Assembly (NCBI GenBank): GCA_001275005.1
Contig: JWZX01003176.1
Location: 1-43,138 of the forward strand
Source of the DNA: Chrysochromulina tobinii
Taxonomy: Eukaryota
Direction of reading: 5' to 3'
Length of the DNA: 43,138 nucleotides
Shown here: piece by piece, positions 465-31,494 of the stretch
How positions within the stretch are numbered: the stretch's first letter is position 1
How the letters are laid out: every line of letters starts with the position of its first letter
The notes under the pieces: generated by a model
Told to the model about the DNA's origin: nothing
What the model saw: only the letters and a program-made list of their open reading frames with translations
Databases searched by the model: none
Translations under genes and position numbers: made by a program

Positions 465-2851
465 ATGTTCTTCGACGCGCTGCGATCGCGCACTCCATCG
501 TGCACCTCATCCCTGTGTCGCGTTCGTCTTTGCCGCTCGCTGCAAACGCACGGCCTCGGTGGCCTCGTGCGCCACGCGTCAACGGCAGCCATCGAGACCC
601 AGCAGCACGTGATCACGCGGGCGCTTACACGGCCGCTTGCTGGCGCATTGGGCGGCGGCGGCGTGCTTGCACTCTCACTGCTCTGGCAGTCGGAGCGGCG
701 CGCAAGCGCGTGCGCGCCCGTAGGCTTGCAGCTGGCGTCGGCTCATTCCGCAAGCACCTCCCGAGCGCAGAGCATCGGGGCGCTGATTGAGACGAAGGGC
801 CGCCTGTGGGTGGCGCTGAGTGTCTTCTGGCGGTGCCTCGAGCTGCTCTGGCAGCTCGCACCCGTCGTGTTCACCCTGCCGCTGCTCCACTCACCGCTGC
901 GGCTGCGGTGGCTTGCGCTGCTGCGCCGCACGCTCGAGCGCTGCGGGCCAGTGGGCATCAAGTGGGGGCAGTGGGCGAGCACTCGGTATGACCTCTTCGA
1001 GGACGACCTGTGCGACGAGCTGCACAAGCTCACCAACTCCGCGCCCGCCCACTCGATCGCGCACACGCGCGCCGTCGTGGCGGCCGACTTTGGGTGCGAG
1101 CTGAGTGACCTCTTCGCTACCTTCGAGGATGAGCCGATGGCGAGCGGCTCGATCGGGCAGGTGCGAGCTCAGTGCGAGCTCAGTGCGAGCTCAGTGCGAG
1201 CTCAGTGCGAGCTCAGTGCGAGCTCAGTGCGAGCTCAGTGCGAGCTCAGTGCGAGCTCAGTGTGACCTCTGATCGACCTCTGAGCGTCTCTGATCGACCT
1301 CTGATCGACCTCTGATCGACCTCTGATCGACCTCTGAGCGTCTCTGGTGGCGTCTCTGGTGGCGTCTCTGGTGGCGTCTCTGGCGGCGTCTCTGGTGGCG
1401 TCTCTGGTGACGCGTCTGGTGACGCCTCTGGTGTCTGGTCGCCTGTGAGCGCCGCTGACTCTCTCGATGCATGCGCGGTTCGTTGTCGCAGGTGCACCTG
1501 GCGACGCTGAAGCACGCTCACGGGCGCTTCGAGCGGGGTCGCAAGGTGGCAGTCAAGGTGCAGCACCCAAACCTGGCCGAGCGCCTCACGCTCGATATGG
1601 CCATCCTCATGTCCGCGGCCGACCTCGTCGGCAGCGTCGCCGGCGTGCGCATCCACGAGACCGTCGCCCAGTTCGCCTCCAACTTTTACATGCAGCTTGA
1701 CTTCCGTGACGAAGCCGCCAACCTGCGCCGTTTCCAAGCCAACTTTGGATCGGCCTTTTGGGGAGCCATCGTCTCCTTTCCGCAACCCATTGAGGGCGGA
1801 CCCACGCCCCTCGTGTCGGAGCATGTGGTGGTCGAGACTTTCGAGGTGAGCGCCCATCGCCTCGGATGGCCTCTGATGACCTCTGATGACCTCCGAGTGC
1901 CTCTGATGGCCTCTGATGACCTCTGATGACCTCTGATGACCTCCGATGGCCTCAGATGACCTCTGATCGCCTCTGATCGCCTCCCATGGCCTCTGATGGC
2001 TCGACCGCTTACAGGCGGGCGACTCGGTCGCCGAGTACCTCAAGCGCGGCGTACCTCAGGTCGAGGTGAAGGGATGGAAGCGCGTGGGTAGCAAGTGGGT
2101 GCCAGCCGACGGCTCTGACCCAACTAGCCTGCTGCCGCCCGGCGCCGAAGCAGACGACGCAAAGGCGGCGGAGTTTGTCCTGCTGCGCAAAAAGGTGGGC
2201 GTGTGCGGCGTGCAGTCGTACATCAAGATGGTGATGCTCGATAACTTCGTCCATGCGGACCTGCACCCGGGCAACGTGCTTGTGCGCATGGAGGAGGTGG
2301 GCCTGCTCGCCCGGTTCCAGCGCTTCATCCTGCTAGGGGGCACTTGGGAGGAGATGCAGCGCTCGACCATGCCGCACATCGTCTTCCTCGACGCGGGCCT
2401 AGCCGCCACCTTCGACGATCGCATCTACTCCAACGTTCAAGGCTTCTTCACCGCGATCGTCGAGCATAAAGGACCCGAGTTCGGCCGCGCGATCCTCGGT
2501 CTGAACCCGACGCAGCCCCATGTCTTGTCCGAGGAGGCGTTTATACAGGAGGTAACGCAGAAGATGGGCGAGATGCGGGCTCAGCTATTACGGGGCGAGG
2601 GGCGCGCCGGTGACAATATCCGCTCGTTCATGGCCTCGGTTCGTAACCACAATGTGAGCCTCGACCCCACGGTGATGGTGGCGCTCATGTCTATGATGGT
2701 TCTCGAAGGGTGGCAGTGGCGCCTCGACCCTTCAGTCGGCATCCTCGACGCCATCGAGATGCAGCTCATTCGGAAGGCCTCGCTCGCCGGCTGGCTCCTG
2801 TCCGCCGCCGAAGTGTACGCGAGCTTCAAAGCCAAGTATCTGCCCGCGTGA
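465..2851 (+). CDS. ABC1/UbiB (ADCK) family atypical protein kinase; exons 465-1160, 1492-1845, 2015-2851
   Basis: Motifs GPVGIKWGQWASTRYDLF, PMASGSIGQVH, VAVKVQHP, LDFRDEA, HADLHPGN and LDAGL. Two phase-0 GT-AG introns (1161-1491, 1846-2014) join three ORF-track frames into one protein. The Arg/Ser-rich N-terminus suggests organelle targeting. Confidence 0.92.
1161..1491 (+). other. intron 1 of the ABC1 gene, composed of three tandem-repeat blocks
   Basis: CAG|GT...CAG|GT; (GTGCGAGCTCA)x9, then (CTCTGATCGAC)-type 11-mers, then (GTCTCTGGTGGC)-type 12-mers. Confidence 0.9.
1846..2014 (+). other. intron 2 of the ABC1 gene with a (GACCTCTGAT)-type decamer array
   Basis: GAG|GTGAGC...TTACAG|GCG; removal restores the frame VETFE-AGDSV. 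Confidence 0.88.
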
Positions 2852-3513: not shown

Positions 3514-6500
3514 TCATACCCTCACGATCAAGACATCCTCCTCGTCGGCCAAGCCCTCCGGCAGCGCCCAAGGCTTCAGAAGACTCGACGGGGACGGCGA
3601 CGGCAGTGCTTGCGGCGGCGGGACCTCCGCCGGCGCCGGCACCGGCGGCACAACCTCAACTGTCTTCGCACGCTCCAGCTGAGCCTCCGAAGCAGTCTTC
3701 GCAGCAGCAGCTTTCTCCTTCTCGAGCGCCGTATCGAGCACCATGGCCTCCGCTCGGAGCGAAGGCTTCTTCTTGAGGGCCGGCTTGGCAACGGAGGCGC
3801 CAAGCACCGATGCGACCGTCTCGGCGTGCTGTTCAAGAACGCCCTCAGTCTCGTCAAGAACGCCCTCAGACAGCCGGAGTGGTGGGTACGGGAGCAGGGT
3901 CCCCTCGCCACTGAGGTCTCGCGACTGGCGCGAGCGGATGCGTGGCGTGAGGCGCCTGTGCATGCCGCCCGTGAGCTTGTGATTGAGCGCCTCGAGGTAC
4001 TTGGAGGCCACGAGCAGAGCTCCGGACGAGATCTTGAGCACACCTCCAACAGTGGTGCTGCTCAGCCCATACACAAAGCCCTTGACGCCGCCCCGGCTCG
4101 CGCCTCGGATGGAGGCGCCCAGGTCGAAGACGCCGGTGCGCACGCCCAGCTCGAGCACTTCGAGAGAACCCATGGCTGACATGAAGTCACGCGACTTGTG
4201 CTGCTCCGCCTGAAGGTGTGAATAGACGAAGTTGGGGTCGCGGGTCAGGCGCGCGAGCGCGGTGCTCGAGGTGCCCAAGTTCGTCGAGAGGAACGAGAGG
4301 ATCCAATCGGCGATGGTGATGGAGAAGCCGTGCAGCCCCGCAGCCAGAGCCGCGGGCAGCTTGAGGAGTGACGAACCCTCACGCTCCCACCGGGCGAGGA
4401 ACCGGCTGTACCCAAACTCGACGGCTTGGAAGAGCTTGCCCACGTTGCCCAACTTGTTGGCGAGGAGATTCGTCAGGGCTTTGAGCGCCGCGAGCCAATA
4501 ATGGGCGACGGCGAGCTGCACGAGATCGGCGGGCGGCGAGAAGAACTCGAGCGTCTCGAAGGGCGGCAGCTCAATCTGCCAATTGTCGAGCGAAGCGAGC
4601 GAGGCGACGGCGCTGAGATGATCGAGCTCATCGAGGTCCTCGTCGTCGAGCGCGGCCGCCTCGCCGCCGTCGAGCTGCGAGCGTCGGTCGAGTGCATCTG
4701 CCTTGATCTGCACGGTGATGCTCAGCCGCACCTGGTCGATCTTCACGCGCTTGAGATAGAGCTCGTTCAGGCCCGATTTGGAACGAGACTTGGAGCGCTG
4801 GGCGACCACCAGCTCCGTCGACTCGGCGCTCTCGGGCGGCTCGTCTGCCGGGGCCTCGGCCTGGGGAGTCTCGTCCTCGTGCATCCGCCGCTCGTGTTGA
4901 TTGCCATCCGCCGTGTCCGCGATCTCCGCTAGACCTCGCTTCATACGGACGAGTCGGGCGACCAAGGTCTGCTCGAGGCAGATGGTGAGCGGCTGCAGCG
5001 AGATGCGCACCTCCTCGACGCACTTGATGCTGCTGCTGTAATCCGTCTGATCGGTGAGCGAAAAGAAGAGCATCGGCGGGAGAGGCCCATCCGACGCACT
5101 CGAGGGCGCATGGACCCTGCTCACACTGCGCCTGTTCGCACTGCGTCTGTTCACACTGCGTCGGATGGGCGGCGGTTGCGGCGGCTGGCGCCCAGCGCCC
5201 ACGACGGCGCGCCACGGGTGCTCGAGGAGCGAAGCGGCAGCAGCCTCGAGCGAGGCCGCGTGCGCAGGGAGGCATCGGCGATCGCGCGTGCGCTTCGATT
5301 CCTCGGCGAGCAGCACTGGGAAATCCGCCGATTCGATGGGCGTGTCGATCTGCAGCAGGTCCACGGCGAGCTGCACGGACTGCCGAGGCGCTCCGCTCGC
5401 GGGTGTGACGCTCATCAGGTGAGCATCGATGTGCTCGAGGGAGAAGCGCAGAATCTCCGACGGCTCGAGATCGACGAGGGTGAGCCCAACACGGCGCAGA
5501 TGGACGTGCAGCATCTCGACGGTGATCAACTTGAGCGGCGTCGTCTCGGGCGGTGGCGGCTCGGGCGGCGTCGTCTCGAGCGGCGGCGGCTCCGCGGCGC
5601 CCCCGGCAGGTGGGGCGCCGTGTTGGGCGTGGGGGTCGGCGGCGACGCCCAGCCGCTGGGGTGTGCCCACCACGGCGCGCTGGGGCGTGCCCGCCACGGC
5701 GCGCTGGGGCGTGCCCACGTGGAGCTCGCGTACTGGGCCGACCGCATGCAACTGTAAGCGCACGCTGTGCATCTCGGCCTCAATCTCGGCCTCAATCTCG
5801 GCGCCGGCCGCCCTCGAGAGCGCCGTCGCCGCACGCAGCAGGAGCTCGCGTGCCTCGCTCGAGGCGGGCGGGCAACTGTACAGAGGCAGCTGCCCTTGCT
5901 CGTCGCGGGCGCGGGGGTCGGCCTTGGCGCGCAGGAGCAGCTTGAGGACCGGCGCACAGCCCGCGGACGCTGCAAAGTGGAGCGCGGTCATGCCCACCAC
6001 GGCGCGCTGGATGCCCGAAAGAGGTGCGGCGCCGTGTTTGGAGTGGGCGAGGCTGGCGCCGTGCTGGGCGCTCGCCTCCGACGGGCGGGAAGGCAAGCCC
6101 GGCTCGGCGCGGGCTTCGAGCAGCATTCGAACGAGGTCGGCATGCCCTCGGATGCACGCCTCGTGCAGCGCACTCGTGCCGTTCGGACCAAACGAGTCTG
6201 GGTGCGTGTGGGAGTGAAGCAGGGCCTTGACGGTCTGTATCTGCCCCGCGGCCGCAGCTGTCACGATCAGCGCCGAGTGGATCATCTGCGTGCCCACCGC
6301 CTGCTGCCGCGTCTCGGCCATCGTGAGCTCTGTGCGCGCACGCGAGCCCTCGATGGAGAGCTGCGACGCACGCTTGCCATCGCCCCCCCTTGCCTCGAGA
6401 GGGTCGGCGCCGGCGCCGAGCAACAGCCGAATGCACGTGTGCCCGTGTGGAGCGGCCACATGGAGAGGCGTTTGCTTCCACCCGTCGTGGGTCTTCAGAT

Positions 6501-9500
6501 TCACGTCGGCCCGCGCCTCGATGAGCTTCTCAATCACGCCAGCGCTCTGCAGCGCACACGCGACGTGGAGCGAGCTCTGCCCCGTCTGGTGGCTCACAGA
6601 GTCGGGCGAGGCGCCCCGCGAGAGGAGGAGGTTGAAGGTGCTCATGTCGCCCGACGCGAGGGCGTCGACCAGCTCGGGCATCGCGATACGCGTCGGCTCG
6701 AGCTGCGAGTGCCAACGGGCGGCGCGTCGGCGGCGAGTGACCGACTGCACGAGCACGGCCGCCTGTGCCGCATCCATATTAGGGTTGGCCGTGCTCACGC
6801 CGCGCGCCCTTCGCGCCCACGAAAGCACCTGCAGCTGCACGTCCTCAAGATGGGCACGGGTGCTGACACGGGTGCTGACACGCTCCGCCATCTTGGCGCG
6901 CACGAGCTGCAGCGTCCTCTCCGTCGCGGCCCGCTCCTTGGAGCCGCTCAGTAGCGCGTTGAGCTGGGCACACGTGCGGGCAGGATCGAGCAGGCCGGTG
7001 CAGCGGAGCCGCTCGCCGCTGGTCGTGACGATGAGCAATCCGCCGTCGGCCACGTCCCTTGCATCGAGGCTCGAGCTGCGTGTGCCACCTTCGCCGCCGC
7101 CCCCTCTCGCTCCATCGGCCCCGAGGAGGACGGCCGCCACCTGCTCGAGCGGCAACGGGAAGGCGTCGAGGGCCATCCACGTGACCGTCGGCCCTGGAAA
7201 AGCGTCAGCGTTCGACACCCTTTCCTCTTCCGACTGCGACGGCGTGAGCGGCGGCGGGGACGATGAGTCCTCGCCCTCGTCCTCACCCACGGCCTCCCTT
7301 TTCGTCTTCCTCCTCGTCCTCTTCTTCTTCTCATCAGCAAGCACCAGGTCTCCGCTGATGAAGACGAGCCATGATTGTGACGCGCACAGCCACCCCCGAG
7401 AGCGCCTGATACGGCGCGGAGGGCGCGCCGCCAGAAGCGCCTTGTTGGCCGCGCTCGGTGAGAGCGGCGTCTTTTTCTTCGGTGTTCCACCCGCCGTCGT
7501 GGGCGACTGAGCCGCCGTCGTGGGCGACTGAGCCGCCGTCGTGGGCGACTGAGCCGCCGTCGTGGGCGACTGAGCCGCCGTCGTGGGCGCGGCATGGTGC
7601 AGGGTGCATCCGACCGAGAAGAGATGCGATTCTGACCGTGGGAGCCACGCGGTTGGCGAAGCCCGCGCCTTGCCGCCTGCAAGCGTCGCCAACTTGAAGT
7701 CGGGCGCGTGGGAGCCGATGCCCGTGACGGCGCTGGCCGTGCTCGCCATTTTGCCTACCGCGTCTCCCAAAGTTCCCACAGAGGACGCTGCCCTCTCGGT
7801 GAAGGAGCCTCCGCGGTCCATCACGCCGCTGATGGCGCTCCCCACCGACACCCCACCGAGGCTGATGGCGTTGTCGAAGACCTGGAGCGTCTTGAGGACC
7901 GCATCGCCCACACTCGCCTCCTTGACGGCCTTGAGCTCTCTGGTCGCTGTGGCGCACTGCACGCCGTGAGGGTCGCGCAGCATGAGCTCGAGGGTCGCCG
8001 GCTCACCCCGCTCCTTGAACGCGAGGGGCGAGTCGAGCGCGTAGTCCATCGTCTCTCCCGCGCCGAGCAGATCCCAGCGCTGGGTGCCCACCTGACGAAA
8101 CCCGAAGAGCATGAATGGCAATCAGAGGTCATCAGAGGCCATCAGAGGTCATCAGAGGTCATCAGTGGTCATGACCTGACGAAACCCGAGGAGCATGTTC
8201 AGCATGCAATCAGAGGCAATCAGAGGTCATCAGAGCTCATCACCTGACGAAACGCGAGGAGCATGTTCAGCATGCAATCAGAGGCAATCAGAGGTCATCA
8301 GAGGTCATCACCTGACGAAACGCGAGGAGCATGTTCGATTCGTTGGCGATGCGGAAGGGCAGGTGGCGGCTCAGGACATCCACATGCTCGGCCCGCGCCC
8401 CCGAAAAGTGGCCTTTGGGCTCGTCGAGGTAGAGCACCGTCTGCGCGCGCTCTTGGGTCACGTGGAGCACCAAGTAGCGCTCGATCGCATACGAAAGCTC
8501 CTCGTCGAGATTGGGACGAAACTTGAGCGTGAACGTGCCCATCTGGAAGGGCGAGAAGGCACAGCACCACTCGTGCTCGCGAGTAGCAAAGCGTACTTGC
8601 ATGAGCCGGCGGGCGTCGTAGTTCCGGAAGCGCAGCGCGCCCGTTTGGGCGCCCGGAGGGACCACGAGCTCAGCGCCAAAGGCATGCCGGCGGCCGAGCT
8701 CATTGCCTCGGTGCTTGGCCGGGGGCGCCTCCCGCCACCAAAGGGTCTCTGACGTGGCATTGTGCACCACGAAACGGTCGTGGACGTAGGTTACATTGCT
8801 CATGCCCACGGGCACGCTCGAGTCGCGCTCGACCGTGACGCTCACCTCGACCATCTCCCCATGGCCGACGGGCACCGAGAGGGGGGTCGACGAGCCGGTC
8901 ACGTTGATCGGGAAGGCGCCCGACTGCGAGCCGATCACGTCCGACTTGGCGTACGCGAGGCGTGCCTTGTCGCCGACCTTTTCGGTGGCGCCTTCGAAGG
9001 CCAGCGTGAAGTAATGGGGCAGCGCCGAGTGAGCGTCCGCGGTGGTGACCGGCTTCTTCGCGCTCGAGCCGTAGAGGGCGAGGGGCACCGACGACTTGTT
9101 GTACAGCCAGTGCGGCGCGAACAGGCGCAGCTCGCACTGGGCGCCGTGCGACTTGATCTCCACGAGTAGCGTGACGGAGAGGGCCGTGTTCCGGCCACCC
9201 ACGTGCAGCTGGAGCTGCGAGATCTGCTTGTGGCCCACCCGAGCCTTCTCGGGCAGGCAGACCTCGATCTCGCCGCGCAGAGGCTCGCCGTCCGCGCGCG
9301 GGAGCTGTGCGTACAGCTCGAGCGCCGTCCACGCGTGGAAGCTGTGGAAGCGGCGCGAGGCGCCGGCGCGGATGGTGAACTGCGCCGAGGGCAGAAGCGC
9401 GTCGATCGGGAGCGGAGGGTCGAGAAAGTCCTTGTTCAGATGGCCCATGAGGCTCTCGTCCACCTTGTGCCCGCTTCGGCCGCTCGGCCGCCTGGCGCGC

Positions 9501-12500
9501 TGCGTCAGACGAATCTCGACGGAGCTCGGCAAGAAGGAGGCAATGAGCAGCGGCGCGATCAGCGTGAGCTCCCTCGGCTGCCAGCCGGCGGCCGGGCTGC
9601 GACTCATGCGGATCGCGTGCGCGTGCAGCTCGCGCATCTTGGCGAGTGCCGTCTTGGCGGTGGAGGTTTCGTCACGGAACTCAAACGTCAGGCTGCCCCC
9701 GTTCTTGAGGCGCACGACCACCTCGGCACCCACGGTAGCGTCGAGCCCTTCTAAGAAGGACGATCTCAGCGCCTCGACCACCTCCTCGCCAGAGTCGGCC
9801 ATGGAGGAGGTGGGAAGCCCTCTGGTGAAGGAGGCAGCTCCCTCAGCCACCGCGGCGGCTCCACTTCTCTCGGCGATGGCAGTGCTGCTTTTGGCGGCCG
9901 CGCTCTTGGTTTGAGCAGCCGCGCTCGCAGCGCCCCGAGCCATCGCGGCGGCTCCACTTCTCTCGGCGATGGCAGTGCTGCTTTTGGCGGGCGCGCTCTT
10001 GGTTTGAGCAGCCGCGCTCGCAGCGCCCCGAGCCATCGCGGCGGCTCCACTTCTCTCGGCGATGGCAGTGCCAGCTTTGGCGACCGCGCTCTTGGCGGCC
10101 GTGGCGGCCGCTCCCAGACCAAGAGCGATCGAACGATCGATCACCTCGACAGCTGACCACGGGATGGCCTTCTCCATCGCTCCCGATTCGCCGGAGCCGA
10201 CGCACCGGACGCACAGGTATCCGGGCGTGAGGTACACACGGCCGCCCGTCGACCCATCCGAGTGGCCTAATCCGGTCAGACTCCGGAGATTGAGGCTCTT
10301 TTCGCCCGTGATCTGAATCTCGGAGATGCGCGACGAGCGGAAGGAGTCGATGCACGTCTCGGACGCGGGCAGCTGCAGCTCCGCGAGCTCACGCATCCGC
10401 TGCTTATTGATCGCGGTCGCGGCTGCTGTGGTGGGCAGCGGCTCCGCTTCCGCCTCCTCTTCCTCCTCCACCTCGTCCTCCTCTGACCGGAGGACGCGAA
10501 GAGATTCCCTTGAGCTCTGGACGATGCAGATCCATGGCAGCAGCAGATCCGTAGCGGCAGGGGCGGCGGCGGGGTCGGCAGCAGGGTCGGCAGCGCTCGG
10601 GGCAGCGCTCCCTAGCCCATGGCTCCTGAGCCACTCGCGCGTCGCCGCGTCGGCGGGGCTCACACTCTCTTCCAGACTCTCGAATTGATCTCGAGTCGGG
10701 CCGCAATAGAGGAGCGCCGTTCGATCGGTCCATATTAGGAGCTTGCCCGTGGGGGTGGCGGGGGCGGCAGACGTGCCCTGTCTGAGGCCGCTGGGCTTCT
10801 GAACGGAGGGTTTGGCGCCAATTGGGGGGGTGGCGCGGCGGGTAGAGGGGCTGGTCGAGGGGATGTACCCTCTGTCCGGATTCTGGAGCACGATGCCGTC
10901 GCCGTCGGGCACTCCGTCGGGCTCAAATCGCAAGCTCGCCATCGACCCTTCCGAGCCGAAGAGTGTGTACGCGAGAGGTAGCCATCGCTTCTCCTCACGT
11001 CGCACCACGACGGCACTTCCGGCGCCGAGGAGCATCTGGTCATAGCGCGCGTCCCAGTGCTTGCCGAGCGCCGTTGCGAGCGCGGCGCTCAGGTCGGTGC
11101 GGATCAGGACCGGGCTCGCAGTCTTATTCTTGATACTGAGGGTCGAGCGCGCGCTCACAGTACGGCACCCTCGGTCGTGTCTCACGTCGCACACCACGCC
11201 CAGCGTCATTTGGCGAGCCTTCATGGCCATCCCCACCGTCCTCGCAAAGTTGACGCGCTGCTCCCTGAGAAGAGACCACTTGCTCTTCGCAGGGCCGCCG
11301 CCGGCCGCGGCCGCCGCCGAAGGGGCCAGAAGTGAGGCCTCGGCAGCGGGGCAGGCTGTGGGAAGGGAGGCCTCGGCAGCGGGGCAGGCTGTGGGAAGTG
11401 AGGCCTCGGCAGCGGGGCAGGCTGTGGGAAGGGAGGCCTCGGCAGCGTCGGCAGCAGCGGCTACGAGGACGAGCGACGAGCCGAGACGGTGCAGCGGCAG
11501 CCGAGCGGGCGTGCAGAAGAGCGCGCCGCTCACCTCGTCCTCGAAGACGAACGTGACCGTCTCGAGCGCCGTCTCGAGCTCCTCGGCCGGCCTAGTCGAG
11601 CTCGCGGCTGCACCGGCTGCCGCGGATCGATGGATGAGCAAGCGCCGTCTCGAGCTGCTCAGGCTGCGCTTGCGGTGGAGCGCTACCGGTAACGCCTTGA
11701 GTGGACTCATGGCCCCCAACAGCCCACCCAAGCCCAAGGTCCGCTCGTGCTTGCCGATGGGCGAGGCTTTTGCGGACTTTTGGACCAAATTGGTGCATGA
11801 CGAGACGATGTGGCCGAGCCCGCCCAGCTTCCGGGTGACGAACCGGGTGACGCTGCGGGGGGTCGCGGCGGCCGCCTCGGCGGTGGGACGACGTGGTCTC
11901 GTCGGGGGGGTCGGGAGGTGCGTGGACCGATAGCCGACGAGCAGCCCTTCGAGCTCCGCGTGCCACACCTCGATCGTGGGCGAAACGGTCGGATCGCCGC
12001 GGTGGGAGTGCCCGTCATACTCGGCGGGATCGTCCGTGGCGGGAACCTCGAGCCAAATCTGCTCCTTGGAGATCGTGATCACGTGGAGCAGCGTCACGGC
12101 TCCGTCGCCCGAGGGCCGCGGGCGCCCGACGATCGCCACCTTGTGCAGGCTGCTGACGGGGAGGTGCTCGAGACGGCGCTCGAGACTCTTCGGGTGCAAT
12201 GTGAGCTGCGCGTCGGCAAAGCGGCAGAGGCCTTCGCGCGAGAGCAGTCCAAACCAGAGGCGTGGGTGAGTGAGCTCGGCGTCCCATTCGATCAGAAGCC
12301 CGCTGCACAGCGACGCGAGCAGCGACGCGTCGCGCAGCAGCGCATGCGCCGCCTCCACGTCCGCCGCCAGCTTTGAACGCTCCCTGCGCTGCTGCGCCGT
12401 CCGGCCGCCGCTCGGCGTCGTCGCGGGCAGCAGCTCGATCGGGAGCAGCCCGTCGCTGTCGACCAGCGTCGGGTCGGCACCCGCGTGGAGCAACAGCCCA

Positions 12501-15500
12501 ATGGCCTCGGGAAAGACGGCGCGACTCGCCAGATGCAGCGCCGTCTTGAGCGGTCCCTCCTCTGCGGAGCATGCGGGCAGCGCGTCGACGCTCGCACGTG
12601 CTGCAATGAGCAGCTCGGCACAGAGCAGAAACGGACGTCGCGAGCGGCTCTTCGAGACAATCGCTGCGCGGCACGCGTGCTGCAGCGCGGTGCCGTCCGG
12701 GCTGAACGAGTTCGGGTCTGCGCGCTCGCGCAGCAGCGACCGGACGTCTTGATCTTGACCCCTCGCCGCGGCGAGCACCAGGTCTGGGTCCGGGTAGTGC
12801 GTGGCCAGTGGCCATCGAGCGGCGCCGTCCTGGGTGTCGTCCTCATCCGAGCTCGAGGAGCGCAAGACACGAGCGGAGACGTCGTCGTCTGCCACGTATC
12901 CACTCCGATCGGAGCCGCCGCTCGGCTGCTGCACCGGGAGCGGAGGACGTGGATCGAGGGCATGCTTGCATGCAACCGCGAGCCTCTTGTGCGCCTCGGT
13001 CTTCCGATGCGCCTTGGCGAGCCAAGCGGCCGTCCGCCCATGGCAGTCCGCGGCGATCGGGTCGGCGCGGTGCTCGATCAGCAGCTCGATGATGCCGACG
13101 GAGCCCGAGACGGCGGCAAAGTGTAACGGCAGCATCCCATCGCTCGTAGGCTTGTTGACCTGCGCCTTGACGCGCAGCAGCATCTTGACGACTGCCTCGT
13201 GCTTGTACGCGGCCGCCACATGCAGCGCGCTATGATCGCCGTGCACGCCGCCCTTTTCCGAGTCTGGGTGCGCGCAGCGCCTGAGGAGCAGTTCCACCGT
13301 GGCGAGCTCGCCCTTTCGCGCCGCCGTGACGAGCATCGCGTTGAAAGTTGTGGTCGCGTGCTTGCTCGCGTGCTTCGCTCCGAGAGCACCCATGCGCTTT
13401 GCGCCGATCCACATGGCATACCCGCCCAACGGTTCGGCCACAAGCGACGTGAGCAAGTCCAGTCCCCTCGGGTCTCGAGTCCCTCGATGCGGCCAATGTG
13501 AGACCCTTCGACGCGAAGCCGGAGCTCGGTATAATTGAGCGCGGCCGCCGGCTCGTACACATTCTTGGTCTTCAATTGTGAGCCGACCACCTCGGTAGCG
13601 TGCACGATCTGGCGCATCGACTTGTATGAGTCCTCCTTGTCCCGTTGCCGGCGGCTGCGGCGCATCTCGTCGAGACGACTCTCGACCTGCTTGAGACGGC
13701 CCTCGTACTCGAGGCGCACCGAGCGCTTCTGCTCCTCGCTCTGGCCCGGCTGCTGCTCGGCGCTCTCCATCTCGAGCTTCGTCGAGTGGAGCTCTTGCAG
13801 CAGCGCGAGGATCCGGCGCGACATCTCGCTCGCCGTCGGCGCTTGGTCCGCCGTCTCCTGCACGCCGTGACCGAGCTTTGGAGTGGGAGGCGAGGAGGAG
13901 CCGCGGAGCCTTGGAGGCCGTGCGTCATCGGTTTGGGGTCCATCCTCAGGCTCGATCATGCGGAACTTGTCCTTGAGAGACGCCACGCGCGGCGCTGCCT
14001 CGAGCAGATCCTTGAGCAGAGCGTACGACACGTTGATCTCAATCGGGGAGCTCGCGCGAAGCATGAGCGCCGTCGTGGTAGTCGGCCCCGTCGCATGGTT
14101 GGCAAACGTGAGCCGGACAGCCGACGGCTCGAGGATCGGTTCCCATCGGGACAGGGCCATGTTGAAGTTGGACACTTGCATGCGCAGATCGAGCGCCACA
14201 TTGTCGAGCACGTTGTCGAGCACGTTGGCCGACTTGACGAGCACATCGGCCTGCGCGCGGAACCCATCGACAGCGACCTCGAGCAGCGGCAGGAAGGAGC
14301 CCCCTCCCCACAAGGCGGCGTCCGAGTCGTCGATGAGATGGACCCAGAGCCCACCCCAGCTGCTCACACGCACCTTGAGGTCCATGCTCGTCAGTTGCGA
14401 GCCCGGGTCCGCAAAGTCGGCCGCGGTGGCTGCCGCGGCCTTCTTGGCGGCGGCGAGTCGTGATGGCGACAGTCGCGATGGTGGCTGCGACGGCAGTGCG
14501 CCGTCGGCCCTTTGGGGCGGCAGCGCCGAGCGCATCGAGGCGACAGCTCTCTTGAGCGCATCCGAAGCGTCCCCATCGTCGACCATCCGCTCTTGGTTCG
14601 GCATTCGCGATGGCAGCTTGGGCGCCGGGTTGAGCGCCGCCTCCGCCACGGCCTCCGCAGAGCGCATTTGGCCCCAGCTTTGGCTCCAGCGCATGGCACG
14701 TTCGTGCTGCACCACAAGCTGCTGCTCCTTGGCGATCTCCTCCCCGATGATGGCGAGCAGCGCCAGATGGGAGAAGGCCAGGTTCAAGTGGAGCGCGCCA
14801 AGGCGCACGTCCACGCGCAGCACGATCGGGAGCACGGAGCCCAAGGGCGGGAGCGTCCTCTCGAGCACAAGATCCAATTGGAAGCGCTCGAGGGTGAACT
14901 TGTCGTTCGGAATCCGGCCCTGCTCTCTCGTGCCGCCGAGCGCCTCCCCGTCGTTGTCAACCACCCTCCATCGCTCGTTGAGACGGTCGTCGATGAGCAC
15001 TTCGACATGCTTGAGGCGCAGCCGCAGCCTGTCGCACCATCCGAGGTTCGTCAACTTCGGGCGTGCGCCAGGGCCCAAGTCGAGCAGTTTCGTCAGATCG
15101 GTGCATGCTTGCAGCTGCCCGAGGCGTACCACCAGACCTCCGCGCGGGTCGCTTGGGCGTGGCAACACGAGCACAGGCAACTCGAAACAGAGGCACAGCG
15201 CCACCAGAGGGAGGGTGCGCAGGGCATCCGTCGGGTCGCCTGCGGCAGCGGCGGGCTTCGTACCGGTACCGCCGCCGCCGCCACCGCCGGCAGCGGCTGG
15301 CTCGGGCGCCTCGGCTGCTGCCTCCGCGGGCGGCGGCGCATGCGCTGCCACCGCGGTGCCGAGTCGTGCAATCGCGGCGCCAATCGACGCGAGCTCGCGC
15401 GCATGCAGATTCACCTGCAGGGGCTTGAGAGCGCATGCAAGACTCAGGGCATACTCAGGCATGGTGCACGCCGCGCTGCCCTGGGCACCGCCTGCTGCTA

Positions 15501-15907
15501 CCGCCGGCGCCGCCTTCGGCTTCAGGGAGCGTAGCCGGAGGACCAGCACTTGCATGCCAAGGCACTTCGCCGCCGTCCGATCGCCCCCCCCACCCGCCGC
15601 CGTCCGATCGCCCCCCCCACCACACGCCACCTCGGTACTTCCGATGCCGAGGTTGCGCAGCACGGCTTGCTTGGGTCGGTGGCGCGCCTCGGCGGCGTCG
15701 ATCGGCCCAGCCGCGCGGAATTCATCCAAGACGCGCGCCGCCGTCGCGAGCGCTCCCGAAGAGACGCCCGCGGCGGCGCCGCCAGCGCTAGAAGGAATCC
15801 AGCCACCAGCGTGAGAAGGTGCCTCGGCGGCGCTCAGTGCGCTGCGAGCGCAGGGCATGGTACGGAGGAGTTCGCGCGCTTCGGAGCCGCCGCCTCCAGC
15901 GCCTCCA

Positions 15908-15941
<34 letters not shown>

Positions 15942-18900
15942 TCTCAGCGCGTGCGTAGGCATGGATGCCTCCTATCGTGAGCCGCACGTCCTGTGCGCCC
16001 AGCTCGAGCAAGGCACGGGCCTCGATGGCCGCGATACTTGCAACGAGCAGCGCGCCCGCCGACGCCGTGTCGGGCGCGTGGGGCCAACCAAAAGGAGTCG
16101 TAGCGTGAAGCAGGACTGCCAGCCTCTCGAGCTGCGCGCGCACGAGCATCTTCGGCTTGGCGGGAGCCGCGGCAGATTCGACTCGCGGCGATGAACTTGC
16201 TTCCGAACCCTCATGCACATCTGCATACTCGTCCAAGGCGAAGCTTTCGACATTTGGGCTTCTGACTCTAGCAGCAGCTTCGACTCGCGGCGAGGAACTG
16301 GCTTCTGAACCCTCATGCACATCTGTAAACTCGTCCAGGGCGTTCGCTGATTGAACACTGCCGAGGCTGCTGTTGACGCTGCTGTCGACGCTGCAGTTGT
16401 CGCAGCCAGCCGCCGTATTGCTAGGCGACGATGACTCGGCAGCGGCGGCGGCGGCGGCGGTGGCGGCGGCGGTGGCGAGAGCGGATCGCTCCGATGCGAG
16501 GCTCTCTCCGAGCGTCTTCGCTAGCATCACCGACATGATGGCTCCTTTGAGGCGGCGATCGGGCACGGGCGCTTGCGAGTCGACGACGCTCTTGACGATA
16601 CTTGATGAGATCTGGCTGATCTCAGCCATGCCCGCCAGCGCCGGTGCAATCGCCGCTGCAAACTGAGTCAGCCCGCTGAGTGGCCGTGCGAGGGCGGAGG
16701 TGTCAACGTGCACGCGCACCGGCCGAATCGCGACGTCCACACACGTGGCGGCTGCAGCCGCGTCGAAGGCCGGCGAGCCGGCTTGTACAAGATCGAGCTG
16801 CACCACGAGCAGCGAGGTGGCGTCGACAAGCGCCGCTTCCTCGTTGAGGTGCGCGTCGAGATGGGCGCTCGCCGATGCGTCGAGCTGCTCGAGGTCGGCA
16901 GGCAGCCTGCCGCCGTCGAGGAGGGGGATGAGACCAGCGCGCGAGCCGTCTCGGGCGGCCGTTGGACGAGCGGACGCTTCCCATCGGGTGCGCCGGCCCT
17001 GGGCGCCGTCTCGGGCGCCGTCTCGACGTGCCGAGGAGGGGGAAGCGGGCGGAGGTGGCGTCACAAGAGTAGTAGGCCCGAGGTCGATGGAGAGGCCTTC
17101 GAGCCGCATGGCAAGCCGCAGATCCAACGGACGCATGTGCATGCGCGTCCGAAGCTCGTGTAGGCGCAGGCAGAGCAACGACTGTGGTGCGGCCGGCCGC
17201 AGCTGCGGCTGCTTAGATGCCGATGAGGACAAGAGGGTTGGTGGGGCGTGCACCACTGTCACTGTGAGCTTGCACAGCCGGAGCGAGACCGCCATCTGTT
17301 CACGCTCGATTGCGTCGCGCACGACGGTCCCACCCGCCTGCTTCGTCGCCTCCTCGAAAAACGTTCGGAGCTTCTGCTCGGCGAGCAGATCGCTGCGCTT
17401 GCGCCTCGGCGGCTGCTTGGCCGCGCAGGCGGCGGCCCATTTGTTGGCTTCGGATCGCGTCTCGACGAACACCTGGACGGTGCACGAGGCGAGATGGCGA
17501 GGCAGGCGGGACGCGTGCATCGCGAAGCTCAAGCTCCGACCGTTCCCCCCCATCTCGGGATTGTCGAAGTCGTCGAGGCACAGCTCATACGACTCGCCCG
17601 TGCTCGTGGCGTAGGTGAAGCCGCGGTTACGAAGCACTGCCCACGAGCGACCATGCTCGAGGACCATCTCCTTGCCATACTGCGCGCCGGTGCCAGCGAC
17701 GCTCTCCTTGAGCCGCGAGCTTCGGACTACGCCCAGTACCCAGCCGGAGCGGCCACCGCTTTTGGATGCCGAAGCCACGAGCGTGTTGATCGTGAGCAGG
17801 AGCATCGATAGGTTGCCGTAGAGCCCGCTCAGCTCGAGGACCGTCGCGTCAGAGACGCTCAGGCTGATCGCACGCACCAGGACGGACACGTCCACACGCG
17901 GTACCTCGGGCGGCACCTCGACGAGCGGCACGCCAACGGCGATTTGGACTGACGTCACCTCCACCAGCCATCCCTGGGGTGGTGACGTCGGCGAGGGAGG
18001 GGACGTCGGCGGGGGTGGTGACGTCGGCGGGCTCGATCGCCAGGGATGGTTCTGGAGAGGCTCCGCGTCCAGATCAAAAGAAGGATGCAGCCACGCGGCC
18101 GCGAGGGAGGTGGGCGGCAGGATCCCCATGCGCGCCGCCTCGAGCGCGACGCGTAGCACGAGGCGCGGCTTGTCGGTGGGCAGCCCGACGCTTTGCGCAT
18201 CGACCGTGCAGACGCTCAGCGGTCCGACGCGGACCAGCACGATGCGACGCACGCTGCACGCAGGCTGAACGCTGGGGCGTCGCTCTTTGTTGAGGTGGCG
18301 CTGACGTGAGGTGGCGCTGACGTCGCCCTTTGCTGTGGCGGCGCCCTTGGCGGAGGAGAGGTTTGGGAGTGTCGCTGGCTCCACTTCACGGTCGTCTTCA
18401 TCGGCGCGCGCGTGCACACGGCCTTCAGCGGCGCGCGCGTGAATGAGGCGGGGGAAGAGCGCCGAACGCATCGCATGGAACTCGTCGACCGTGAGCGACG
18501 GCTCGACGAGGGCAAATTGCAACGTGCCCACACGAACGTCAATGTCAGTCGCCAACGCCTTGGACTGCATGGCAGCGAGTTGCGCACGCATGGCAGGGCC
18601 GATGGCATCGAGCACGTGGTCGGCGAGCTGCGCCCCGCGCGCCTTGAGCGCTGCTTCGAGCGCCGACTCTTTCCGGCGCGTCGAGTTGTCCGTACTCGGT
18701 CGTATCGAGGCAAAGTGGAGCAGCGGCGGCAGGATGTGGGGATCAAGGAGGACGCGTGGGCCGGCGACGCGAAGGCGCACGCCCAGCGCGACGCCAGAGG
18801 CCGACAGCGTGTCTACCTGCAGCTCGATCGCGGCATTGGTGTCAGCCGGCGTCGAGATCCCATCTCGCGGCGTCGAGGTCACATCTCGTCTCGTCGAGAT

Positions 18901-20991
18901 CCCATCTCGCTGCCGGCGGCGCATCTCGTCACCATCTCCCATCGAGCTCCCATCTTGCTGCCGGCGGCGCATCTCGTCACCATCTCCCATCGAGAAGATG
19001 GTGCGCAGGTACTCGTCGCGCTTGGCTTTGAGGTTCGTCAACTCGATCGCCATCACGCGCGCGTAGAGGGATATCGAGCCGGCGCCTCCGAGGAGGATGG
19101 CGGCCCGCACCGACGCCTGTCCGACTTGGAAATCGAGCCACGCCGAGTCATCGCGCTCGCTGTGGATCTTGACGTGGAAGGAGGGCATCGAGAAGGTCAC
19201 CACGAGCTCCTCGGTATTCACCGCCTCCTTGCCGGCCATCGACGCCACCATCGCCGCGTGCACCGCTGCCTTGGCCACGCCCGCCTCCTCGGCCGCCCGC
19301 TTCGTACTCTGGTCGAGCTCATACTGGAGCTCCTCGAGCTCGCCGGGCGTCACGACGGCCGCATGGGCCGCATCCGTGTGCGTTGGTCCACCACCGAAGA
19401 GGCCCTTGAAGAGCCCCGCCGGCTGGAAGGCGGCTGCGAGCCGCCGAAAGGCGACGATCTCTTCAAAGAGCATCCCATCCGCCTCGAGCGCCTCGAGATG
19501 CTTGACCGACTCCGAGCCAGCCTTCGCACCTCGAGCCGCGACGTAGGCCTCGAGGTACGCAGCGCGCCGCTCGCGCCGCTGCCTATGGTTGCGCCAGCCG
19601 AGCTTGAGCTTGCCCTTGCGCCTCACCTCGAGCAGCGCGCACCGGCCCACAAACTGCCACCACTCGCGTGGGGCCGTCGAGGCGGCGACCGAGCTCGGGC
19701 GGCGCGCTTCGGCATAGTGGTTACGCCGCTCCTTGAGGTCGAGTGCCTCGAGCACAGCCATCAGGAGCACAAACTGGCCGTGGCGCACGCACAAGCCGTT
19801 GCCGTGGACGCTCACCGCTACGGCGCCATCGCTCAGCCCCAAGCCTGCCAAGCCCAGGTCGAACACCACCTTCAGGTCAAGCGGTGTGAGGATGTGGGCC
19901 GGCCCCTCGGGGGCGTCGATCAGGGGCTGCATCAGCCGTCTCCAATAGCTCCCAGCTGCATTCGCCTCGAGCGCACTCGCATATTCCTCGTCATCCCAAA
20001 CGTCCAAATTTGGAACAGGCTCCTCGCCCACGCTGCCGCTGCCCGCGCCGCCCGCGACCGAGCTGCCGCCGCCCGCGCCGCCCGCGCCGCCCGCGCCGCC
20101 TCTGCCTCTCCCTCCCTCACCCCGGGGACTCAGCCACGCCTCGCGCTCAGAGGTGAGATCGGCACGGGAGCCGAGGTAGATGCCCAGCCCTTGGAGCTCG
20201 AGCGTCTTGCACACGCGTGCCTTGGCGCGCGGGTGCTGTGCGACACCACCCGTGCCGCTCTTGCCGCCGCCCGTGCCCACCACGGCGTCCAGCGTGTTGA
20301 TGAAGGCGAGGCGGCGCAGCACCACGCCCAGAGCGAGCGGCATGGGGTCATCCTTCACCTCCTCTTGCAGGCGCACGTGCACGTTGGTGAGCACGAACTC
20401 GATTCGGTGGGCCACCGACGAGATGATCTTGTCGATGAGGCCCTCACCCTTTTTCCCGCCGCCCGCCGCCTGCCGCTGGTCCTCGACAGCCTGCCAAGCC
20501 GCGACGCGCGCACGCAGCGCTGCCGCCGCGCGCTTCGCCGCCATCTCGGGCTCATAGGTCTCGGGCTGGGCGAAGCCGCGCAGCACGAAGTAGACACGGT
20601 CGATCTTCACGGTGATGGGCTGGCTCATGAGATCGTGCCACGGCACATGCAGCTCAATGCTGCCAATGAAGCCTCCCGCGAGCTCGCACGGCAAGCCGTC
20701 AGCGAGCCCTTCCGCGTCCGGCCTCAGGAACAGATCGCTAAAGGTGGCGCCGTCGATGCCTATTCTCGCAAAGCCGATCCGAAAGAAGGCCTCCAGCTGC
20801 TTCTTGACCATGTCCGTGATGGCGCGGCCCACCCAGGAGAACGCGCCACCAAAGACGGAAGAAGGCGCTGCTGCGTGCTGCTTGTCTGAAGGCGCTGCCG
20901 CTTCGGCGTCGGCGGCGCGCGCTGGCGACGGGCTCGCTCCCGAAAACCTTTCGCCAGTCATCTGACTCCATGACTCTCGGATCCAGTCCAT
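3514..20991 (-). CDS. VPS13: giant VPS13-family (chorein) bridge-like lipid transfer protein, ~5,750 aa, with inserted ankyrin, PH/GRAM-like and IQ-like modules; intron 8092-8311; apparent frameshift near 13465
   Basis: Chorein-N-like GFIGSIELHVPWHDLMSQPITVKIDRVY and EWWQF; NFNMALSRWEPILEP; VAB-like APHWLYNKSSVPL and PFRIANES; C-terminal LQIDTPIESADFPVLL and ELYLKRVKIDQVRLSIT; ATG_C-like GVKGFVYGL. Three consecutive long minus-strand ORFs (13078-20991, 8288-13456, 3514-8121) are joined by one intron and one frame change. Confidence 0.85.
7491..7589 (-). repeat. coding 21-nt tandem repeat (PTTAAQS), about 4.7 copies
   Basis: CCGCCGTCGTGGGCGACTGAG repeated perfectly within VPS13. Confidence 0.95.
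8092..8311 (-). other. 220-nt phase-0 intron of VPS13 made of three serial GT...CAG units
   Basis: Sense strand TTTCGTCAG|GTGATG...TTTCGTCAG|GTGGGC; removal joins AFRQ to VGTQ in frame. Confidence 0.9.
9851..10070 (-). repeat. coding 93-nt tandem repeat, about 2.4 copies
   Basis: GCTCCACTTCTCTCGGCGATGGCAGTG recurs at 9858, 9951 and 10044; 31-aa unit AIAERSGAAAMARGAASAAAQTKSAPAKSST. Confidence 0.92.
11333..11446 (-). repeat. coding 33-nt tandem repeat (AAEASLPTACP), about 3.4 copies
   Basis: GAGGCCTCGGCAGCGGGGCAGGCTGTGGGAAG recurs with period 33. Confidence 0.92.
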
Positions 20992-21562
20992 ATCGGCCGG
21001 CCGTGTTCGGGACTATCACGACGCCCTCGTGGAGGAACATGTTTCCATTTTTAATCAAGTTCATTTTTAGACAGCCGAAACACTCTCACACACATAAGTC
21101 AAGCTTGCGCTACAAACGTCGCGCCGGCCCGCCGAAAGGAATCATGTGAAGATCCGTCCCGGCGGGCCCTGGCACGCGAGAGCAGCATGTATGTACAAGC
21201 TCAGCAATGAAGCTCAGCTTCAAGCTCATTCCGTTATCCGTTTCCTCAAGAAGGCTTTCCCCTGGGCCTTTTCCGATTGCCCTTCCTCTGGGCTATCAGT
21301 ATCCCCCTATGACTGGTTCCATGAATGGACACCGTCCCATGTGATCGACACACCTGTGTCAAGTTGAGTTCACAGGAGCGACGCGTAACTTTGGGCGTCA
21401 CGCGGCAATCAGGACTTCAGGAGCATTACCTTGTATGGAATCAGGAGGCCAGGCGCTCGGATGTTCAGCCGAAGACTGGCGCCCCACACCGACACGCGTC
21501 CTTGCTTGCGTCCGCTCCAATTCACGCAATCTCGACAGCCGAGATCACTTCCGTCTCGTGAG

Positions 21563-28886: not shown

Positions 28887-31494
28887 ATGGCTTTCGGCGT
28901 GATATGCTCGTGCTGCGGCGAGAAGGGCGAGGTGGAGGACGCTGCCGCGGCGGCCTCCTTCATGTGCCAACCTTGCGAACAAGATCCCAACACGGCGAAA
29001 CCCGACATGTCGGTGTACACCATACCCGCCGAAACGGGAGTCGTCATGCTCGAGGCAGCGAAGGCGTTTGCCACTCTGACGCCAAAGGAGCAGGCGTACG
29101 CACACGCGCTCGCCAAGGCAGATTGGGACGGCGCCAAGATCTGCCTACTTCAGTGCAGCCCTGAATCGCCCTACATATTTGCGCTCCTCATGCTCGTCTT
29201 TTCCGCGCAGCCGGTGGAAGCGCTCGTCTCAATGTCGTCGGCCAAGGGGCTGAGCGATGAAGAGGTTTGCCAAGCGCTCATGTACTGCGCGGCCTTTTTC
29301 GGCAACATGGGCAACTACAAGTCCTTCGGCGACACCAAGTTTGTCCCGTCGCTCGCCGCCGACAAAATGCTCGCCTTTCTGTCCGCCGGCGCGGCGGATG
29401 GTGCCAAGGTAGATCGGCTTTGGCGACGCTGCGTCGTGCGGATGTACTCGCTGCCGCCGCGGCAGCGGCAGCTCGGGCTCGGCCGCGCGAACGGCATCTC
29501 GACATACTTTTCTGCTAACTGCGAGGCCGCTGACGCCGATCTCGCTGGCCGCTTCCTTACTTCGATCGGCCTCTCACCATACAATACGAGGCTCTTCAAG
29601 GGCGACGATGGGTACACCGTGCTTCTCGCGTCAGCGGAGGAGCAGGCGGCCGTTGCGGGCATCCTCGCGGAGGCCCGCAGTGCCGGTCTAGATGCGAGCA
29701 AGGCTGTGCCCGCCTGGCTGGCCAACCTCGACCTCCCGGCATCCATGGCCGCGGCGTTTGGGGCGGTGGCCGTTGACATCAGTGATGGCGAAGCGGCGGG
29801 CGCGGGGGCGGGCGAGGCGGAGGCACGGGCGCTGGACGGCCTGTGCCGCGCTCACTCCTTCGAGGGGCACACGATCCGCGTGCGCCGCGGCGACTACGCT
29901 CCAATTATGGCTCGTGTGGTGGGCTGGCTCGAGGCAGCGATCCCCCACGCGGCAGACCAGACGCAGGCGGCGATGCTCGAAGCGTACGCGACGTCGTTCC
30001 GTGAAGGCTCGATCGAGGCCCACAAGCGTGGATCCCGCCACTGGATCCGTGACAAGGGCCCCGCGGTCGAGAGCTACATCGGCTTCATCGAGTCCTATCG
30101 CGACCCGAGCGGCTCTCGCGGGGAGTGGGAGGGCTTCGTCGCCTGCGTCAATCGCGAGGTGAGCCGCACGAGCTCACCTGATGGCGTCTGGTGGCGTCTG
30201 GTGGCGTCTGATGGCCTCTGATGGCGTCTGATGGCGTCTGGTGGCGTCTGGTGGCGTCTGATGGACTCTGATGGCGTCTGATGGCGTCTGATGGCGTCTG
30301 ATGGCGTCTGGTTGCCTCTGATCGCAGGTGAGCCGCAAGTTCCAAACTCTCGTCGACGGCGCTGAGGAGATGCTCAAGCTCATGCCCTGGCCCCGCGCCT
30401 TCGAGAAGGACCAGTTCCTGCGGCCGGACTTCACGTCGCTCGAGGTGCTCAGCTTCGGCTCGTCGGGCGTCCCAGCCGGCATCAATATCCCCAATTATGA
30501 TGACATTCGGCAGTCCGAGGGCTTCAAGAACGTGAGCCTTGGCAACGTGCTCCAGGCCTCGTACGGCGCGGGCGAGAAGCCCGTCTCCTTCGTGGCCGAG
30601 GCCGACCAAGCGCTCTTCAAAGCTCTCAAGGGCGAAGCCTTCGAGGTGCAGGTGGGAATCCATGAGCTTCTGGGGCACGGATCTGGCAAGCTCTACCACG
30701 CCAACACGGCCGACGCCGCCACGCTCCACGGCACGCCGCACCCGCTTACGGGCGAGCCTATCTCGGGCCCCTTTTATGCGGCGGGCGCTACGTGGGACTC
30801 GACCTTCGGACGGCTCGCGTCGGCCTATGAGGAATGCCGCGCCGAGTGCGCGGGCATCTACCTGTGCTTGGAGCCAAGCGTGCTGACCATCTTTGGGCAT
30901 GCGGATGCGCCCGCGAGCGAGGTGGCGCAGGTGCACGACATCACGTACATCAACTGGCTCCTCATGGTACGTGCAGGTCTCACCGGTCTCGAGTTCTACA
31001 CGCCGGAGACCCGCGAGTGGCGCCAGGCGCACATGCGTGCCCGTTTCGCCATCCTACGAGTGCTGCTGGAGGCGGGCGAGGGGCTCGTCACACTCACGCG
31101 CACGACGGGTGCCGACGGGAGGCCAGACGTAACCGCGACCATCGAGCGCGCGCTCATCAAGACGGTTGGCAAGGAAGCCATCCGCAAGTTCCTTCTCGCG
31201 CTCCAGGTGCATAAATCGCTCGGTGACCTTGCCGGCGGCACCGCCTTGTTCGAAAAGTACTCGCTCGTGAGCGACGAGCTCATGGCCATCCGCACGATCG
31301 TGATGGCTCGCAAGGAGCCACGCAAGCTTCTCGTACAGCCCGTGCTCACTGCGGCGCTGGATGGCTCGATTGGCATCAAGCAGTTCGAGCCGACGCCCGC
31401 GGGCATGATCGAGTCGTTCGTCGCGCGCTTCCCCGCAGAGGATGACGCGCTGCTCGCCCTCGCCGACAAGGACCAGCCGCACGTGCTCGACTGA
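28887..31494 (+). CDS. DPP3: dipeptidyl peptidase III (peptidase M49), 812 aa; exons 28887-30158 and 30328-31494
   Basis: Diagnostic HELLGH and EECRAE zinc motifs, plus NMGNYKSFGDTKFVP, GFIESYRDP, PAGINIPNYDDIRQSEGFKNVSLGNV and QAHMRAR; phase-0 intron 30159-30327. Confidence 0.96.
30159..30327 (+). other. DPP3 intron composed of a (GGCGTCTG[A/G]T)-type decamer array
   Basis: GAG|GTGAGC...ATCGCAG|GTGAGC; about 14 decamers; removal restores VNRE-VSRKFQ. Confidence 0.92.

Follow-up and report, generated by a model that had tools for sequence, protein, structure and literature searches.

A 220-nt intron of three serial units that all close with a copy of the upstream exon end, in a VPS13-like gene of Chrysochromulina tobinii: a likely single gain followed by tandem growth

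A VPS13-like gene of Chrysochromulina tobinii contains a 220-nt GT-AG intron (positions 8092..8311, minus strand) that is built of three serial units, each of which ends in a copy of the last bases of the upstream exon. The analysis was performed on the whole contig JWZX01003176.1 of the assembly GCA_001275005.1, a stretch of 43,138 nt called here the window, and all positions refer to it unless another contig is named. We consider it likely that the intron was gained once, by the insertion of a target-duplicating 10-mer array, and that it then grew by tandem duplication to three units. Gained introns seldom keep a trace of their origin, and this one appears to retain the duplicated target, the filler and two later duplications. 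Moreover, related strains hold different alleles, and similar footprints are common in the genome (three of eight candidate introns of the window). Repair with long duplications and repeat filler as a main route of intron gain in this organism is thus testable in one gene. The same applies to the question of whether a spliceosome used to introns of 70-85 nt removes a stack of units in one step or in several. As the organism is present in mixed cultures, both questions can be addressed in the VPS13-like gene.

The host gene, giant in size and similar to genes of lipid transport (3514..21012, minus strand, with approximate ends), was delimited by open reading frames, Pfam hits and RNA coverage, and it comprises the frames 13078-21012, 8288-13924 and 3514-8121. 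The Pfam analysis of its product showed ankyrin repeats and the VPS13_VAB domain above its cutoff. The VPS13_N domain was found with an E-value of 7.5e-21, but its 74 bits lie below the Pfam cutoff of 80 bits. Two extra bases at positions 13467 and 13470 are missing in four out of four RNA runs and in two metagenome assemblies (L001 and L002), and they are probably assembly errors that lead to a false frameshift in this gene. The coding sequence also contains in-frame tandem duplications at 7491-7589, 9834-10095 and 11329-11447, with periods of 21, 93 and 33, respectively, which indicates that the gene is prone to local duplication.

The final 25 nt of the upstream exon (8312..8336; all elements of this intron lie on the minus strand), whose end is given by the junction in RNA, stand in phase 0, close with CAG and are the template of the copies. 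The next exon opens with GTG (8089..8091), which completes an AG|GT proto-splice site. All three units start with GT, contain 10-mer filler of the GACCTCTGAT type and end with CAG. Unit 1 (8244..8311, 68 nt) bears the functional donor, four 10-mers and a 25/25 copy of the exon end (8244..8268) that ends in the first internal CAG|GT. Unit 2 (8176..8243, 68 nt), whose 24/25 copy (8176..8200) ends in the second internal CAG|GT, is of the same type as the first unit in the related strain L003 (63/68 identical, of equal length and with the G-type copy). Unit 3 (8092..8175, 84 nt) has a longer array and a different junction and bears the acceptor used in the mRNA, the region of which is the 20/22 copy of the exon end (8092..8113). 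The number, lengths, ends and copies of the units given in a preliminary description of this DNA were confirmed to the base, and so was its statement that the frame is open only after removal of all 220 nt. In the tested stretch, this was the single stop-free variant among the eight combinations of kept and removed units, with two to four stops per unit in every frame.

Units 1 and 2 open with GTG, as does the next exon, and unit 3 opens with GTC. The exon end together with GTG recurs at the unit boundaries, so the duplicated AG|GT supplies both splice sites. However, the generic start of the filler family is also GTG, which means that this triplet could come either from the duplication or from the filler. 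Each unit includes 40-60 nt of 10-mer sequence, and the intron is therefore not wholly derived from the exon. The 22-nt exon end had no other match with fewer than six mismatches on either strand of the whole window, and the chance of the unit-3 copy, counted outside CAG, is P ~2e-8. Folding of the 220-nt intron was no better than that of shuffled sequences (z -0.02), and no inverted ends were detected in it.

In three of the five RNA runs (X13, X14 and X17), RNA contigs lack precisely these 220 nt, with CT..AC at the ends of the gap, which is contig evidence that the sequence is removed from the mRNA as a spliceosomal GT-AG intron. The junction 8311>8092, for which mapping of RNA reads had been proposed, is thus seen in RNA mapped as contigs; among the RNA matches listed, no bridging contig came from X15 or X16. 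The runs X19 and X21 lack coverage of the intron flanks and weigh on neither side. An assembly artefact, in which the assembler would have expanded a single unit, had also been envisaged, and we regard it as highly improbable. The three units occur letter for letter in L001 and L002, which are 99.9% identical to the window; the units differ from each other at diagnostic bases, and at least two array starts are present in L003 as well. In the DNA run X1, from which the window itself may derive, contigs extend from either exon into the intron, and the junction of units 2 and 3 is spanned by one of them, over 8144-8216. What speaks for an artefact is that the window contains assembly errors elsewhere (the bases at 13467 and 13470), that no X1 contig among the matches listed crosses the junction of units 1 and 2, and that the evidence consists of contigs. 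L001 and L002 are probably of the same strain as the window and hence provide a check on the assembly, not on the population.

The comparison of the units with each other bears on their order of origin. Units 1 and 2 are identical at 66 of 68 positions and share the array-to-exon junction and the order of the 10-mers; judged by their sequence, they can be firmly regarded as a tandem duplicate. The three separate fill-in events assumed in the preliminary description are not supported, given this pair. At unit position 58, unit 1 has the C of the exon, while units 2 and 3 have G. We infer that unit 1 obtained its C when the exon end and the copy in unit 2 were exchanged at a point 5' of that base, and unit 1 is likely the youngest, having arisen as a duplicate of unit 2 with renewal from the exon. 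The array-to-copy junction is not the same in units 2 and 3, where 25 and 22 nt are copied, respectively. The residue at the position of the shared G is Ala in six homologue clusters and Gly in the closest homologue, P0037. The shared G was at one point taken for a derived mutation, an interpretation withdrawn in view of the Gly of P0037, and the G of units 2 and 3 may be the old state of the exon. The 3'-most copy had been proposed as the oldest on the basis of a gradient of divergence. Such a gradient of identity does exist, but it is partly due to refreshing from the exon and does not provide a clean clock.

The strain L003 differs from the window at 21 of 1691 exon bases. Its contig carries a first unit of the unit-2 type, followed by a second array start, after which it departs from the gene, probably through a mis-join. 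The derivation of unit 2 from unit 3 by duplication is only plausible. The simplest history comprises one birth and two duplications, with two births and one duplication as a possible alternative. A stronger version of the latter, in which the array was inserted repeatedly and independently at a hotspot, each time with its own target duplication and with regeneration of AG|GT, seems unlikely to us. It would explain why units 2 and 3 differ in copy length and junction; 10-mers of this family are plentiful, and the shared G is explicable if the exon once coded for Gly, as in P0037. However, family members elsewhere vary in length and ends, and the near identity of units 1 and 2, with their common junction and 10-mer order, limits the independent units to at most two of three.

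In the history that we prefer, a single gain followed by tandem growth, the first step would be a break or a staggered nick at the CAG|GTG of the exon, repaired with filler from the abundant 10-mer family. Such an insertion would duplicate 22-28 bases of the target across CAG|GT. The copy of the exon end would become the acceptor, the GT the donor, and the 10-mer would contribute CTGAT, which resembles a branch site, at a distance of 31-35 nt from the AG. The insert could then be spliced immediately, leaving the protein unchanged. In the second step, the long direct repeat would allow slippage or unequal exchange to produce further copies of the unit. Since any smaller number of units would still form an intron with GT-AG ends between the same two exons, the copy number could drift almost freely. 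The internal CAG|GT sites would be by-products, perhaps used as splicing steps and perhaps not.

The presence or absence of the intron in relatives was analysed at the protein level. The HMMER search with the upstream exon led to 14 distant representatives, six of which (P0016, P0018, P0019, P0020, P0027 and P0029) continue through the site with no stop. P0037, which belongs to the cluster of a seventh representative, also reads through, which gives seven clusters in all. The other distant representatives fall short of the site, and no alignment ends there; word-based protein searches returned only the own cluster or nothing. The alignment of orthologues proposed in the preliminary description thus yielded seven distant homologue clusters without an interruption at the site, an absence deduced from proteins whose identity in this region is about 30-42%. 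P0037, on a 12.3-kb contig, and P0020, on a 47-kb contig, are very likely unspliced DNA calls, in the case of P0037 because an intron-like repeat stretch at another site is read through in frame; some of the other read-through homologues could be transcripts. That stretch of P0037, at about residues 133-197, is built of repeats and suggests a parallel family of repeat introns in a relative.

The close relatives gave a different picture. The cluster of close proteins has 37 members; of the 15 listed, 11 extend as far as the site, and every one of these stops seven residues later. The stops are of three allele types (four, four and three proteins), one of which is the window's own. As these proteins run into the intron and stop, the gene calls from these sources are unspliced, and the presence of the stops in all 11 proteins in three variants implies that the intron is common to the close strains and that its array changes fast. 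Judging from these alignments, the intron is likely a lineage-specific gain. The earlier idea, that the intron was born through target-site-like duplication and repeat filler, is likewise likely, given an acceptor that is a copy of the exon and distant homologues that are free of the intron.

The generality of the boundary copies was assessed on eight candidate introns of the window, of which the VPS13 intron was checked with RNA, and on L003, L010 and L019. The boundary-copy score was 19 for the VPS13 intron, 22 for the candidate at 40630-40707 and 12 for the intron of the DPP3 gene, and it ranged from 3 to 8 for the other five; the maximum of the control, calculated across 72 cross pairs, was 9. 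Long boundary copies are therefore present in three of the eight candidates. They are missing in the remaining five and in the family member of L019, so members of the family can do without a long duplication. Among the repeat introns, the boundary copies measure 3-5 nt (L019 and the second ABC1 intron), about 12 nt (DPP3) and 25 nt (VPS13); a short target duplication constant across the family was not found.

The candidate at 40630-40707 (plus strand) is 78 nt long, in frame and devoid of 10-mers, and its opening 24 nt are a 23/24 copy of the beginning of the following exon. By its sequence it is a probable intron that mirrors the VPS13 case on the donor side. The 10-mer intron of the DPP3 gene (30159-30327, plus strand) has a donor that copies the first 10 nt of the next exon. 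DPP3 relatives read through this site, one of them as a full frame of 737 aa on an 11.3-kb contig. In L003, a repeat intron at 2300-2453 of the contig repeats its own exon/donor junction, as a perfect copy of 26 nt located 95 nt further downstream, and represents a second case of an internal CAG|GT, in a part of the contig that is probably mis-joined. L019 contains repeat introns of the generic form at about 980-1100 and 1320-1440, with a 28/30 copy of a piece of exon near its end.

The latter two contigs bear on another possible history. The locus could have held a generic 10-mer intron into which a duplication spanning the donor copied the exon end, after which the generic last unit was lost exactly, for example through the cDNA of a partly spliced RNA, leaving the exon copy as the acceptor. 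Such turnover, the exact loss through cDNA included, appears quite improbable to us. Donor-spanning duplications of the required kind are seen in the tail of L003 (the perfect 26-nt copy, 95 nt apart) and in L019 (28/30), and the second array of L003 ends in a generic acceptor. Against this, the sequence of L003 past that acceptor is not VPS13 and resembles an assembly jump, the scenario requires one additional exact event, and the mirror-image cases at 40630 and in DPP3 fit single insertions with target duplication.

As for the filler, arrays of the 10-mer occur in four introns of the window, in L003, L010 and L019 and in thousands of contigs, and they form a repeated family in the manner of introners, whose members resemble each other in repeat unit and ends, not in end-to-end identity. 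In the run X1, 3529 contigs were aligned to 6 kb, 1579 of which fit two places; the RNA runs gave 323-461 contigs each. The generic form of the family, as seen in consensuses of loose ends and in L019, ends in CCTCATCAG. The scan of genome contigs for the 10-mer revealed 17 loci. Two of them, L010 and L019, are eukaryote-like contigs inside bacterial bins and carry the 10-mer intron family; the search of these bins gave no additional contigs with the family. The other 15 (L004-L009, L011-L018 and L020) are look-alike 10-mer arrays in bacterial genomes, several of them intergenic and beside an inverted copy, and they look unrelated to the intron family. No match was obtained in two 10-mer scans of viral contigs.

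The 10-mer contains CTGAT, and the motif CTG[AG]T was counted 48 times in the sense and zero times in the antisense orientation of the four repeat introns of the window. The last branch-like CTGAT is predicted at 8277..8281 in unit 1 and at 8209..8213 in unit 2, in both cases with its A 35 nt from the end of the unit, and at 8121..8125 in unit 3, with its A 31 nt from the acceptor. A branch-like 5-mer lies no more than 60 nt from the AG in all three units and in all six other candidate introns of the window that were tested, against a background of 11% of 35-nt coding windows, a comparison that is rough because these windows are narrower than the scanned span. Similar 5-mers lie 26-39 nt from the AG in four repeat-free candidate introns. 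The 10-mer is thus predicted to serve as a branch site, in which case an insertion with a duplicated AG|GT would be spliced immediately.

By sequence, each unit is a complete mini-intron, close in size to the plain introns of the window (75-84 nt), and consequently any order of removal would yield the same mRNA. Each of the two internal CAG|GT junctions is preceded by a short stretch rich in T and, at a distance of 35 nt, by a branch-like CTGAT. The proposal that they act as recursive splice points is possible by anatomy. The joints listed did not include skips of 68, 136, 84 or 152 nt; they come from contigs with a depth of 5-8, in which rare forms are lost. Recursive AG|GT ratchet points (PMC10156609; 10.1101/006163) are described as an adjoining acceptor and donor inside an intron, which is the arrangement of the VPS13 intron. 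Stepwise removal at ratchet points gives the same mRNA, as would be the case here. In the human study, short introns (<1,000 nt) favoured conventional lariats (PMC10156609). The fungal stwintrons, as outlined in PMC8469720 and PMC9024468, are nested and obligately ordered, whereas the VPS13 units are serial. A broader reading, that the 10-mer minisatellite makes introns out of long duplications by acting as branch-site filler and that the resulting stacks of mini-introns are spliced unit by unit in any order, so that recursive splicing would have arisen out of intron gain within only 220 nt, is put forward tentatively, and we consider it rather unlikely.

Of the known routes of intron gain, introners are described as a repeated intron family in which one splice site comes from the duplicated target (10.1101/2022.06.06.494994; 10.1101/2020.10.14.339549), and the VPS13 intron shares both features. 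The same accounts describe an introner family of Chrysochromulina sp. that carries its 5' site, co-opts its 3' site from the duplication and has no terminal inverted repeats (10.1101/2022.06.06.494994; 10.1101/2020.10.14.339549). However, the target duplications of introners are given there as 3-8 nt and fixed per family, and those of the VPS13 intron are 22-28 nt and variable; likewise, introners are near-identical elements, whereas the 10-mer array that forms the filler here is variable. No series of units at a single site appears in the sections of these two accounts on which the comparison is based (10.1101/2022.06.06.494994; 10.1101/2020.10.14.339549).

In the model of AGGT tandem duplication, a duplicated AG|GT provides acceptor and donor and leaves the protein unchanged, as in the VPS13 intron. 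In its classic form, however, the intron derives from the exon over its full length, and the VPS13 units consist to about 60-75% of foreign repeat filler with a branch-like motif. Intron gain by break repair places filler DNA between direct repeats, which is also seen here, but its repeats are described as short, while those of the VPS13 intron are long enough to drive duplication of the unit, and its filler, unlike ours, is not one genome-wide family. Tandem repeats spanning an exon boundary (PMC1557585; human paralogues, PMC2812944) are reported to cross the donor and to create identical internal pseudo-donors, as in the VPS13 intron; in the 37-bp VNTR of intron 7 of human F7, the mature RNA is spliced from the donor furthest upstream (PMC1557585). 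Unlike F7-type repeats as presented there, the VPS13 units also end in an acceptor with a branch-like motif, which makes them mini-introns separated by exons of zero length.

At the level of titles and abstract openings, the literature contained no report that deals with introns built of serial target duplications or with this 10-mer family, which supplements may list. Serial units and the 10-mer family are likewise not mentioned in the portion of the haptophyte genome paper PMC4580454 that was available. We regard the VPS13 intron as real, well supported and likely young, with a target duplication of unusual length. Its ingredients are known; their combination and the clean record are uncommon.

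The Rfam search on 8092-8311 gave three hits to C/D-box snoRNAs, far below the gathering score. They are explained by TGATGA and CTGA within the 10-mer, which we take to be box C and box D motifs, and a snoRNA in the intron was rejected; the box C/D-like motifs of the array are probably incidental.

Two further repeat-built introns (1161-1491 and 1846-2014, plus strand) lie in the ABC1 kinase gene of the window. The first of them joins arrays of 11-, 11- and 12-mers and has a weak likeness to the exon end. In L001 and L002, the ABC1 intron region contains one extra 11-mer.
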